From Escherichia coli (GTDB taxonomy: Bacteria > Pseudomonadota > Gammaproteobacteria > Enterobacterales > Enterobacteriaceae): a DNA stretch of 64,000 bases. Location: assembly GCF_024298765.1 (NCBI RefSeq), contig NZ_CP101210.1. One strand, given 5' to 3'. The position numbers are program-made. This document shows, in pieces, positions 55,601 to 58,600 of this stretch (position 1 is the first letter of the stretch; each line of letters begins with the position of its first letter).

Positions 55601-58600
55601 CTGCCCGGCACTTGTTGACGCGGCGCTGGCAGACGACGCAGCCGCTGTTTTTGAGCCTGCCGCAGCTGAGGCACTCTGTCCCGCTGCCGTTTCAGAAGAC
55701 TTAGCGTTCGTCTCGGACGTTTTGGCCGCCTTCGCAGAATTTGCTGTCGCCGTTGCCGAGGAAGCTGCGCTGCTGGCGCTCGAGGCTGCGCTCGTTTCTG
55801 ATGATTTTGCCGCCTCTTTTGAAGCTGACGCATCCCGGGCTGAGGTGGCAGCTTCTGACGCTTTCGTGGTCGCGGTGGATGCAGAAGTGGCTGCTGATTG
55901 TTGTGACGCTGCCGCATTCGTTTCTGACGTTTTCGCCGCAGCGGCACTGGTGGCCGCCGCGCTTTTTGAGGACTCTGCAGCGGCAGCACTTTTTTCCGCT
56001 TCAGTGGCCTTTGTTGATGCCGTTCCTGCGCTGGAAGACGCTGACTGAGCCGACGACGCGGCCTGTCCGGCTGACGTGCTGGCTGCGCGTGCTGAGCCTG
56101 CAGCATCAGTCGCATGGGTTGCCGCCTCACGGGCTGATGTGCCGGCATCGCTGGCTGACTTCTTCGCGGCTGCCGTGTTCTGTGCCACCGCGGACGCGTT
56201 ACGCGCCACCTCTTCCACCATCAGTTCAAAACGGCGCAGAGCCTCAGGACGGGCATCATCCTCTGTCATGGCACCGAGAAAATCATTCAGCGTACCGGGT
56301 TGAGAATCTTCATACACGGTGATGGTCCCGGCATGTGACGGCGGGAATCCCTCCACCAACAGAATAACGCTGTACTGACCGTACTCAACGTCCATACTGT
56401 AACGCCCGGCTTCATCCGGATTTTCAGATGCCAGCGTGTTCACCACCACCGTGGTGCTGTTACGTTTTGCTTTCAGCTGGATTGTGCAGTTCTGTACCGG
56501 TTTTCCTGTGCCGTCTTTCAGTACACCTGAAATCTTTACTGCCATATTCACCCCACAAAAAAGCCCGCCTGAAACGGCGGGCTGTCATAACACTGTGTTA
56601 CCTGGCTAATCAGAACTTATAACCGACACCCACGATGAAACCATCAGTGCGCCAGTCACCACTGCCGGAACCTTCATAAGCAATATCAATGGCCACGGAT
56701 TCGGTCGGGTTAAACTGCACGCCAGCCCACCACGCCAGAGACGTGTTGCTGTGGCGACCGTCATCACTTCCGGTCAGCACATCATGCGTTTTCCCCTTGT
56801 TGTCAGTTACGCGGAGATAATCCCCGGAAAAAGTCGACACACGGCTGTAAGCCACGCCCGCCATCGCATACGCACTGAACCATTCATTCACGCGCACAGA
56901 GGGCCCCGCCATCACGCTGAACCAGCGGTTACGCACAGAATCTTCATGCCAGCGGGTATCGCTGTAACGGGTCAGCTGGCGATTCTTGTCTCCTGCATAG
57001 CTGAATGACGTCACCATCCCCAGCGTATCCGTAAACTCATAACGGTATTTCACGTTAATCCCGTTCAGATCATCGCTGCCGGGAACGTTGGTCGAGGCAT
57101 GAAGATACCCCGCGCTCAGCGTGGACTGATGTTCAGATGCCCATGCAGGCGCACCGGATACGGCCAGACAAATGGCTGCGGACAAAATTGCTGCACAAAC
57201 TTTACGCATAATTACCTCTCGCTTTTCTGCAATAAAAAAGGCACCATTTCTGGTGCCCTTATATGGGTTATAACAATTTCAACGAATACTGATGCCGGAA
57301 GCGGCTTTTTTGGTCACAATCACCGTACAGTCGGTGATATTACCTGCCCACTGATTGCCTTTATGGAAAACCTTAAACTCCAGAGTGACGCTTCCCCTGC
57401 CACTCGGCATATCAATAACCGCACTGTAGCTACCGGGAATGGCCCCTTTAGTTTCTCTGGATGCGATTAATACACCGTTTTTGCGAACTTCAAAACCATA
57501 ACCCGTGTATCTTGTACCTCCCGGGTTATTACCACTTCCCGGATCGCTATACGCTATTCCGTTAAAGATAATGGGCGGAATAATGATTTGACGGTCAAAG
57601 TTATGATCATCGCTGATGGTGACTGTAACCGTCCCGTTTGGTGTTTCCGTATTACCCCACGTACCAGCCTGTTTCGGGAATGATTTGGATACAGCTTTAA
57701 CGAAGTCACCTCTGACCTGAGTCGCCTCCAGCATGCCCTTAATCGTACAGTTTTCATTTACCGTGACATTGTTGAGCGTCCCGGCGTTCGCATTCACACT
57801 GCCACTGATATCCGCATTTTTAGCGGTCAGCTTTCCGTCCGGTGTCAGGGAAAATGCCGGTGGATTTCCACCGCTGGTAATGGTGGGGGCCGTCAGGCGT
57901 TTCAGGAACACGTCGTTCATGAATATCTGATCGCCCTGACCAACAAACATCGGTTTTGTGTTGCCATTCGCAGGATTAACCATCGCAATCCTGTCCGCCG
58001 CCAGCAGCACCTGACTCTGCATGCCGTCAGGGGTGTTCTCAATACCGGCACCAATACCCGCGATATAAAGGCGTCCGTCCTGCATCTGCTGCAGCTTCAC
58101 AGCCCACATGCTGTTCAGGTTATTATTTGTATCAACCTGAACTTTCTGTATCTGCTGGATTGCCGCACTCTGGTCTTCCAGTTTTTTATTGACGGTCTGC
58201 GTGATTTCATTGCTGACATTCGTAATGGACGTCCTGATTTCAGCCAGGTCCGGCGCAAGCTGACCGTTATCAATCTGCGTCCACAGCTCCTGGGCCAGAT
58301 GTGTTTTCCCGATTTCTCCTTTGAAAAAATCCAGGTAACCTTCCGCATCATCGCTCGCCCGACCGACAGCCTCCACGAATGCCGATTTGCCAACAGTGTT
58401 CACACTGCGAACGTAAAAATAATAATCATGACCCGGCTTGATATTGATACTGGCAGCTATCCAGTACAGCGCCGTGCCAAGATAGCGGGCTGTAGTTTCA
58501 ACCTGCCTGATATCGGTAATCCGCTTTTCCGAGAACCAGAACTCAAACTGTACCGTCGGGTCATAAACGGCAAGATGCGGCGTTGCGGTTATCTGAAAAT

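Follow-up and report, generated by a model that had tools for sequence, protein, structure and literature searches.

Between the phage genes J and lom in the window (the whole analysed stretch of Escherichia coli contig NZ_CP101210.1, 64,000 nucleotides) lies a terminator-like hairpin, and the question is whether it makes lom an independent unit, insulated from late tail transcription and expressed from its own promoter in the lysogen, as the original prediction had it, or whether it simply closes J. All genes of the block are on the minus strand. J, encoding the tail-tip/host-specificity protein (57279..60776, an ORF of 1165 aa with the stop codon TGA at 57281-57279), contains six J-specific Pfam domains (Phage-tail_3, Ig_J, FNIII-A_GpJ, Ig_J_second, Phage_Tail_Tip, and Ig_GpJ_C). 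It is followed, after a gap of 69 nt, by lom (56610..57209, an ORF of 199 aa) and, after another 64 nt, by the side tail fibre gene stf (53144..56545; Pfam phage_tail_N, Gp34_trimer, Collar), whose likely true start, matching lambda, is the ATG at 56545, while the ORF tool gives a GTG at 56551. The tail-fibre assembly gene tfa (52563..53144; Caudo_TAP) is the final gene of this same-strand block. Each gap around lom holds one hairpin, referred to as T1 (J–lom) and T2 (lom–stf), both intergenic, on the minus strand, and co-directional with the genes. Part of this is already known: lom, its family, and the predicted terminators flanking it are annotated in phages Ayreon and 21, and lom is a textbook example of an accessory gene.

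The product of lom is a predicted precursor of an outer-membrane beta-barrel of the Ail/Lom/OmpX family. It matches PF06316 (Ail_Lom) over its full length (residues 1-199 on profile positions 1-199; 402.5 bits with a cut-off of 23, E 3.9e-121), and also OMP_b-brl (74 bits); inspected by eye, the translation has a signal-peptide-like N-terminus, MRKVCAAILSAAICLAVSGAPAWA followed by SE, and a C-terminus, GVGYKF, with an aromatic end. Its identity is 45% with lambda Lom and 32%, over the full length, with OmpX. The predicted family assignment thus agrees with the earlier one, and ompX, the chromosomal Ail/OmpX-family barrel gene, is indeed present in the window (6056..6577, minus strand; NF006917 equivalog, 354 bits). 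OmpX belongs to the same family, but its gene is part of the core genome, has a 5' UTR of its own and CyaR control, and is highly expressed in EPEC.

T1 (57237..57260) reads AAGGGCACCA-GAAA-TGGTGCCTTT, with the stem arms at 57260-57251 and 57246-57237 and a loop of the GNRA type at 57250-57247; then comes the U-tract TTTTTTATT (57231..57239, stem T's counted), whose first three T's double as the closure of the extended stem. The stem has ten pairs, five of them G-C, and the hairpin alone has a folding energy of -15.1 kcal/mol. The 58-nt spacer folds with z = -2.5 (2 of 200 shuffles fold equally well). The number of terminator-like sites in the 54-60 kb region is at chance level (10 found, 6.3 +/- 2.1 expected); the top two of them occupy precisely both gaps flanking lom. 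T1 has a G+C stem-loop, an adjoining 3' U run, the same strand as the genes, an intergenic position, and compensatory pairing, i.e., the features by which intrinsic terminators are recognised. Since the raw site count itself is not above chance, it is conservation that sets T1 apart.

Conservation was assessed in 237 lom instances within 270 fetched loci, representing three Lom lineages and including lambda. About 230 of the 237 carry a hairpin at the T1 position. The apparent exceptions that lack T1 turned out to be rearrangements: an insertion of the IS66 family at -21, an insertion within the hairpin, and a deletion fusing K/I to lom; lomR of the K-12 Rac prophage, which has neither its 5' end nor T1, was rejected as a source of data. 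Among 20 distinct T1 variants, stem pair 13-24 is GC in 13 and AU in 7, pair 14-23 is CG in 15 and UA in 5, and neither is ever unpaired. The covariation score of 0.206 exceeds that of shuffled alignments (0.101 +/- 0.015; none of 500 shuffles reached it) and of slid controls (at most 0.094), and the U-tract is invariant across all variants. Judged by its sequence, T1 with its U-tract (57260-57231) is a genuine, selected element of the Rho-independent terminator type. The predicted minus-strand terminator between J and lom is therefore confirmed as a conserved, co-directional hairpin of the intrinsic-terminator type at 57260-57237; the proposed end of the element, 57257, located the hairpin correctly but left out 3 nt of the extended stem.

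The next question is to which gene T1 belongs. In the lom-less phages 21, mEp460, ev017, and 4A7, and in the IMG/VR locus L232, the 3' end of J, the T1 hairpin, and the start of stf are as in the window, while these loci lack lom together with its 21-nt leader and T2, and stf follows T1 directly. In L232 and phage 21, the order is the J stop codon, TTATAACC, the same hairpin, TTTTTT, and stf. The tail after the hairpin is the full TTTTTTATT in phage 21, running on as TTTTTTATT|TGTGGAGTGAATATG-stf, and TTTTTTGTT in L232. The conserved 9-mer TTATAACCC, located between the J stop codon and the hairpin (57265..57273), is kept or changed to TTATTAACCC in Lom lineages A and B and absent from lambda; at the lom-less junctions it is TTATAACCC in phage 21 and TTATAACCT in L232. 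In 22 phage records, and likewise in at least 1109 E. coli genomes, a single place covers at least 80% of the lom-less junction. T1 itself is annotated as a terminator in the records of both Ayreon and phage 21. As T1 follows J in phages without lom, it belongs to the J backbone and not to lom, and the notion of an upstream terminator of lom's own is not upheld; by this comparison of junctions, T1 is an ordinary end-of-J terminator of lambda-like phages. The same phages bear out the accessory status of lom. Their lack of lom is what one would expect of an autonomous moron, with T1 shielding it from late transcription, a private constitutive promoter, and two Ail/OmpX-type barrels in the lysogen, but the unchanged T1 in these phages speaks against such an arrangement, which we consider quite unlikely on this and the following evidence.

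An independent lom requires a promoter, and there is little room for one. Only 21-24 nt separate the U-tract from the lom ATG; the 21-nt leader, GCAGAAAAGCGAGAGGTAATT (57210..57230), includes the Shine-Dalgarno sequence GAGAGG at 57220-57215. At locus L059, an IS66-family insertion leaves just 21 nt ahead of lom, which is a further point against a private promoter. A scan for the sigma-70 consensus yielded no match near lom, and the best usable position in a PWM scan lies 359 nt upstream, inside J (99.97th percentile of the window background); both scans are for sigma-70, so that a promoter that overlaps the 3' end of J and needs an activator or an alternative sigma factor would escape them. 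The positive control, the 933W-type lom, shows TTGAAG-19-TAAAAT in an AT-rich 90-nt spacer with a score of 10.9, above the 99.99th percentile. In the literature searched, neither a mapped lom promoter nor a named J terminator turned up, nor did Term-seq or in-vitro results on the J-lom terminator. The promoter prediction suggested as a check on lom's own promoter thus came out negative for sigma-70, and with no promoter of its own seen for the present copy, lom represents a known and fairly ordinary arrangement.

Several individual candidates were considered and rejected. The sole PWM match downstream of T1, TTTATT-17-AATTAT, would start a transcript within lom codons 3-4, with no in-frame Met downstream before residue 64. 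The -10-like TATAAC and TATAAG, which lie immediately before T1 or overlap it, are weak and lack a -35; neither the TG nor TATAAG is kept across the variants, and the transcripts would still include the terminator. Sigma-32 promoters need a spacing of about 13-15 nt; the sigma-32-like GTTGAAA...CCCATAT has a spacing of 9 nt, by eye, and other variants do not keep the motif. For direct repeats resembling a PhoP box in the spacer, periodicity and matches are, also by eye, poor. The Hfq-dependent sRNA PasB is antisense in the I-J spacer of the EPEC prophage PP6; the window does not contain its sequence, and T1 or its flank does not encode it.

Another candidate explanation is a weak or activator-dependent promoter in the 3' end of J or overlapping T1, with T1 acting as an attenuator and lom mRNA low and regulated; by analogy with other genes of the Ail/PagC family, the inducing host signal might be Mg2+ limitation, temperature, or bile. 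In favour of such conditional or leaky expression are the TG-n-TATAAC immediately before T1 in the window, the hexamer TATTAT right after T1 in lambda, whose lom is reported to be expressed, and the 30-nt stretch between U-tract and ATG, whose invariance in 133 unique regions hints at a regulatory role. However, the TG of TG-n-TATAAC is not conserved and its transcripts would hold the terminator in full, no stretch of the region varies more than the J 3' end, and the lom signal is never above that of its neighbours in 2 EPEC and 11 EHEC conditions. We regard this variant as unlikely.

Expression was assessed from published RNA-seq of other strains, EPEC in laboratory conditions only, EHEC in 11 conditions, radish sprouts and cattle faeces among them. 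Prophage PP2 of EPEC E2348/69 occupies the same integration site, and its J-lom spacer is identical to that of the window. Here, the DESeq2 baseMean in two data sets is 4.79 and 0.66 for lom, 15.9 and 6.9 for J, and 6.2 and 0.46 for stf; in the same data sets it is 362 and 66 for nleH and 667 and 995 for ompX. Hence lom RNA of PP2 is about as scarce as that of the silent tail genes, and ompX exceeds it 140-1500 times, although the EPEC lom counts are possibly too low, as E2348/69 has four lom-like places. The baseMean of PP6 lom is 2.0. In EHEC EDL933, lom of CP-933M received 0-4 reads over the 11 conditions, and silence is recorded for two further lom genes. This background-level RNA in PP2, PP6, and EHEC weighs against a constitutive promoter, and the expectation that the lysogen expresses lom and so displays two barrels is not supported by its closest proxy, a different strain whose counts may be affected by multi-mapping and by the conditions chosen. 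On the other side, lambda lom has been reported to be transcribed in lysogens (PMC1151598; PMC7067206), which would suit an autonomous lom, although lysogen expression was not reproduced in PMC2147009. The lambda reports imply some promoter near lambda lom, despite a similar T1; documented lysogen expression is limited to lambda's own, 45%-identical, lom.

Lambda differs from the window in relevant details. The gene order J-lom-stf (orf-401) is the same, a hairpin with a U-tract lies about 25 nt before the lom ATG, T2 and the stf start after lom are near-identical, the Lom C-terminus is identical, and both proteins are Ail_Lom. However, the lambda T1 is a hairpin of unrelated sequence, with TTTTATTAT, and weaker (-9 kcal/mol, 4 U), and it is followed by the -10-like hexamer TATTAT, which the window does not have.

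The region downstream of lom speaks to insulation. T2 (AGCCCGCC-GTTTCA-GGCGGGCT, 56562..56583, minus strand) has 8 pairs, 7 of them G-C, and, at -17.6 kcal/mol, is stronger than T1; its T run (56562-56557, the first T closing the stem) is followed by G (TTTTTTG), and all sequence features of an intrinsic terminator are present. The T2 element recurs in lambda, before stfR in K-12 Rac, and in nearly all stf loci. The start of stf is 11 nt past the T run. J itself follows a weaker, terminator-like hairpin in the I-J spacer (AAACCGCC-TCCG-GGCGGTTT, then ATCGTTTAT; 60799..60818, minus strand); within the 60-nt spacer it yields z = -3.3 (0 of 200 shuffles), and the record of Ayreon lists a terminator at the homologous site. 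This phage, 97.5% identical, encodes Q; its predicted terminators follow the head protease/scaffold gene and V and also lie at I-J, J-lom, and lom-stf. With stf 11 nt past T2 and a hairpin ahead of J, the downstream late genes need terminator read-through, and lom is therefore not insulated from late transcription, contrary to what had been proposed. The late transcript is Q-dependent (PMC10695390). In the present prophage, whose regulatory region lies beyond the window, Q is presumably encoded as well, and the read-through is presumably Q antitermination; we infer real termination at both T1 and T2. For an autonomous lom, it would be a difficulty that stf and tfa are reached only if Q-modified polymerase crosses T1 and T2. 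In their form, T1 and T2 resemble the elements of other Q-antiterminated lambdoid late operons, being ordinary co-directional G+C hairpins with U-tracts in short gaps, with the read-through deduced here. Complete related phages possess Q and, within each late operon, several such predicted terminators.

We consider it probable that T1 closes J and that lom is promoter-less cargo of the late operon, Q-dependent and silent in the repressed prophage. T1 would then be the J-closing terminator of the lambdoid backbone and no device of lom, and the lom cassette would comprise a leader of 21-24 nt, the gene, and the 3' spacer, set between the T1 U-tract and T2. Consistent with this, the left border of the cassette is the end of the T1 U-tract, and sequence diversity drops to zero exactly there: no variation is seen over the 30 nt between the U-tract and the ATG (entropy 0.00-0.01 in 133 unique type-A regions, below that of the lom coding sequence), and the most variable part of the region is the 3' end of J. 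As lom and stf start about 10-25 nt past a terminator, they can be transcribed only by a polymerase that ignores terminators; in lambdoid phages this would be RNA polymerase that has started at the late promoter and been modified by Q. During lytic growth, lom would be co-expressed with the tail genes, and in the repressed prophage it would be as silent as they are, with T1 and T2 halting stray unmodified polymerase.

T1 and T2 might instead act after transcription, as 3'-end hairpins that shield the J and lom parts of processed late mRNA from exonucleases, or serve as hot spots for module recombination, and matter little as transcription stops. Because Q-modified polymerase ignores terminators, their role in lytic RNA would be in stability or processing only; moreover, module borders coincide exactly with the U-tracts, break-points occur in or next to T1 (loci L149 and L059), and the loop is inverted in L156. 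But both hairpins bear the full intrinsic-terminator signature, a G+C stem and then 5-6 U, and the covariation reflects selection on pairing, which suits a terminator as well as a stabiliser. As the main account, such a role is very unlikely; it is compatible with the Q-dependent reading and does not exclude it.

Whether lom deserves the name moron depends on the features considered. The definition of a moron comes from HK97 gp15 and lambda bor (Juhala/Hendrix; review in PMC3594210), and a downstream terminator is typical of morons. The window lom shares with them the status of an extra gene at a conserved position, a cell-envelope product, and the strong terminator downstream, which counts in favour of an autonomous gene; however, a T2-type element precedes stf in the lom-less locus L194, and hence T2 may belong to stf. 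The differences are that no private promoter was detected, that the closest strain with data shows no lysogen expression, and that the GC content is undistinctive. The latter is 0.51-0.57 in lom, 0.46-0.48 in the J 3' end, 0.50-0.54 in the stf 5' end, and 0.58-0.64 in the J body, so that the base composition of lom is not distinctive relative to the flanking phage genes. Position and the downstream terminator fit the moron label; promoter and composition do not.

A classical promoter-gene-terminator moron is seen in lom of the short-tailed Stx phages (933W, VT2-Sakai, phi24B). It is likewise of the Ail/Lom family, in a lambdoid prophage, and has an intrinsic terminator on its 3' side, but its identity is about 40%, it is located away from J, and its AT-rich 90-nt upstream spacer has strong sigma-70 candidates and no upstream terminator. 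Expression of Stx-phage lom has been reported to be independent of phage regulation (PMC3342100).

The J-lom segment of EPEC PP6, with the same lom type as the window, matches 4782 of 5426 complete genomes. We tentatively suggest, while thinking it somewhat short of an even chance, that the commonest lom type of E. coli prophages is no lysogenic-conversion gene but a promoter-less, Q-dependent late gene, swapped at the U-tracts of two terminators. If so, Lom synthesis would be confined to cells committed to lysis or to a sub-population undergoing spontaneous induction, both the role of Lom and the value of LomW-type proteins as lysogen markers or antigens would have to be reconsidered, and the invariant 30-nt leader between U-tract and ATG would be a selected site of translation or riboregulation. 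This widespread lom type would then be without the promoter that the moron label implies, and the extra surface adhesin assumed from prophage lom would, if this is confirmed, fail for most E. coli prophages. Generally, a terminator ahead of a gene inside a Q-antiterminated operon amounts to neither insulation nor autonomy.

A search of 55.5-58.5 kb with Rfam gave no family at threshold; matches at chance level occur at T2 (Trp_leader, RcsR1), and weak isrG-like matches lie antisense in stf. The Lom protein of the window carries a rare substitution, G161W (codon 56729-56727), with W at this position in one of 166 copies; affecting a conserved glycine, it could influence the folding of Lom.

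The ORF map shows a lambda-like prophage that fills the window from ~49 kb to its end and adjoins ybhB-bioA, the bio side of the lambda attachment site (ybhB encodes a PBP-family protein); EPEC E2348/69 prophage PP2 occupies the same chromosomal site. Genes I (60837–61478), J (tail tip; 57279–60776), lom (56610–57209), stf (side tail fibre; 53144 to 56545 or 56551, two start options), and tfa (tail-fibre assembly; 52563–53144) are all on the minus strand, with stf and tfa downstream of lom. Between tfa and the chromosome, the prophage arm encodes an AraC-family regulator (HTH_AraC / HTH_18) and an IS1 transposase at 50096–50848 and 51061–51758 (both minus); the GC content of the arm is only 29–33% over 52000–52500.

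The minus-strand terminator reported between J and lom in the original prediction is confirmed as a terminator-type hairpin. This hairpin, T1, AAGGGCACCA-GAAA-TGGTGCCTTT at 57260–57237, lies inside the 69-nt J–lom spacer, has a folding energy of −15.1 kcal/mol, and is followed by the T run TTTTTTATT (three stem T's counted in); of 200 shuffled versions, 198 fold less well than the spacer itself. The gap between lom and stf holds a stronger hairpin, T2, AGCCCGCC-GTTTCA-GGCGGGCT with T run TTTTTTG (56583–56556; −17.6 kcal/mol). The total of terminator-like matches in 54–60 kb is not above the shuffled expectation; the two best are precisely in the two gaps flanking lom.

Among 270 related IMG/VR loci, retrieved by searching with the Lom proteins of the window and of lambda and with the start of stf, a hairpin with U-tract lies equally far from the ATG in ~230 of 237 lom instances, covering three Lom lineages (the 199-aa type of the window, a 207-aa type, and the lambda 206-aa type); in lambda, the sequence of the hairpin is unrelated to window T1. 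In 20 distinct T1 variants, two stem pairs switch GC/AU (13:7) and CG/UA (15:5) with zero unpaired cells, a covariation score reached by 0 of 500 shuffles, while slid controls collapse. The lom loci without a normal T1 have been rearranged, by an IS66-family insertion, by an insertion within the hairpin, or by a deletion fusion. Conserved position and covarying pairs, with only rearranged exceptions, show that T1 is a real element under selection for base pairing. In one variant, from IMG/VR locus L156, the palindromic arms GGCGCC are unchanged and the loop between them, AGAAAT, is swapped for its reverse complement ATTTCT, which reads as the signature of hairpin-mediated inversion. The 9-mer TTATAACCC between the J stop and T1 (57265–57273, minus) is conserved in Lom lineages A and B and kept by phage 21; lom-less locus L232 has TTATAACCT instead, and the neighbouring bases vary.

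T1 was originally regarded as lom's own upstream terminator, an assignment contradicted by phages without lom. The gene is absent from 2 of 120 loci retrieved via the stf start; in one of these, L232, the end of a 1132-aa J is followed by TTATAACC, the same hairpin (GGGCACCAGAAATGGTGCC), TTTTTT, and GTTTGGGGAGTGAATATG-stf. Phage 21 is arranged likewise, with a terminator and, after it, the ribosome-binding site of stf both annotated in its record. The lom-less junction matches at one place, over at least 80% of its length, in 22 phage records and at least 1109 complete E. coli genomes. Hence, T1 is the terminator of J. Since a T2-type terminator also precedes stf after an unrelated gene (L194), and T1 does so in lom-less phages, the pre-stf terminator is likewise a backbone feature.

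DNA specific to lom starts directly after TTTTTTATT. In 133 unique type-A regions, entropy drops from 0.8–1.5 bits upstream to 0.00–0.01 across the 30 nt from the U-tract to the ATG (57210–57239, minus), supporting a cassette border at the U-tract; these 30 nt vary less than the coding sequence of lom (0.14–0.35), which suggests that selection may act beyond the Shine-Dalgarno, e.g., on a riboregulation site. In phage 933W, the terminator after lom is followed by TTTTTATTGC (L278 1692–1720), nearly identical to the tail-plus-junction string TTTTTTATTGC that follows window T1 upstream of lom; the resemblance may be accidental or reflect where the cassette came from.

The proposed insulation of lom from late transcription does not agree with the layout of the operon. 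The stf ATG is 11 nt past the end of the T2 T run, and a hairpin with a T-rich tail also precedes J, in the 60-nt I–J spacer (60777–60836). Phage Ayreon (97.5% identical), which encodes Q, has predicted terminators annotated after the head protease/scaffold gene, after V, and at I–J, J–lom, and lom–stf. As J, stf, and tfa all lie behind hairpins, and lambdoid late genes need Q antitermination (PMC10695390), a terminator here marks DNA crossed only by Q-modified polymerase and does not insulate lom from that polymerase. We infer that T1 and T2 stop unmodified polymerase and that Q overrides them; the Q region of the window prophage falls outside the window. T1 is probably the usual intrinsic terminator at the end of J in the lambdoid backbone, with lom as promoter-less cargo lodged between it and the pre-stf terminator; Q-modified polymerase would then read lom together with the tail genes, and lom would be silent in the lysogen. 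That the hairpins serve mainly RNA stability or recombination is improbable, and would be compatible with this reading. No element found here is of a new kind, and records of related phages already carry the terminators as annotations; what is modestly novel is that the most widespread lom type would lack the own promoter expected of a moron; this type may be a late gene, not a lysogenic-conversion gene.

A private constitutive lom promoter, as proposed originally, is quite unlikely. Only 21–24 nt, Shine-Dalgarno included, separate the U-tract from the ATG, and scanning for the sigma-70 consensus gives no site near lom. In the PWM scan, the best usable match is 359 nt upstream, within J, at the 99.97th percentile of all −35/spacer/−10 placements in the window, hence not distinctive; the sole match downstream of T1 would initiate transcription within the ORF. 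In the positive control, the differently placed 933W lom, an AT-rich 90-nt spacer contains TTGAAG-19-TAAAAT, above the window's 99.99th percentile, with a terminator downstream and none upstream, the classical moron layout. In favour of a private promoter, transcription of lambda's own lom in lysogens is reported (PMC1151598; PMC7067206); it went undetected in another array study, which remarks that the lom promoter is poorly known (PMC2147009). Downstream of T1, lambda carries a −10-like TATTAT without a −35. A conditional or leaky promoter, with T1 as attenuator, is unlikely too, if somewhat less so; the scans modelled sigma-70, and a promoter that uses an alternative sigma factor or needs an activator may be missed by sequence alone.

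Expression data from uninduced lysogens, the check suggested with the original prediction, come from proxy strains under limited conditions and show low lom RNA outside lambda. PP2 is identical to the window over the J 3′ end, T1, leader, and lom start, except for one base within J. Its DESeq2 baseMean values (mean over wild type and hfq mutant; activating/non-activating; Table S2 of Pearl Mizrahi et al., 2021; PMC8550237) are 4.79/0.66 for lom, possibly depressed by multi-mapping among the four lom-like places of E2348/69, 15.9/6.9 for J, and 6.2/0.46 for stf, versus 667/995 for ompX; the neighbouring cargo gene nleH has 362/66, and two further PP2-region genes have 248 and 155 (non-activating). 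In EPEC PP6, bearing the commonest T1 variant, lom has 2.0 versus 15.0 for J and 7.0 for stf (PMC8550237). In EHEC EDL933, with lom copies taken regardless of T1, CP-933M lom has 0–4 reads over 11 conditions, and 933W and CP-933R lom are listed as silent (PMC4048457).

The assignment of Lom to the Ail/OmpX family holds: the window protein matches the Ail_Lom profile PF06316 over its full length (E 3.9e-121), with 45% identity to lambda Lom and 32% to chromosomal OmpX, which is indeed also encoded in the window (6056–6577). Codon 161 (56727–56729, minus) gives LAWWAG versus LAWGAG in 157 of 166 related copies; Trp161 occurs in no other copy, and the glycine is also kept in OmpX. G161W could reflect a sequencing error; if genuine, it might disturb barrel folding.

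Published RIL-seq data include an Hfq-bound RNA fragment antisense to the PP2 J–lom spacer (NC_011601 765228–765249, minus; L283 21229–21250; homologous window site ~57262–57283, plus), with 14 chimeras with the cueR intergenic RNA; this suggests that antisense transcription might end at T1, and hence that the hairpin might act in both directions. The 240-nt PP6 I–J spacer contains, on the opposite strand, the 83-nt Hfq-dependent sRNA PasB (NC_011601 1466261–1466343, L282), which is not found in the window I–J spacer; thus, the gaps flanking J on both sides are cargo insertion sites. IsrG matches are reported as common near PasB (2026 preprint), and two sub-threshold Rfam matches to this Hfq-binding RNA (26 and 23 bits versus gathering score 100; E 2e-4 and 2e-3) are located at 55507–55970 (plus), antisense to the Ala/Ser-rich stf repeats.
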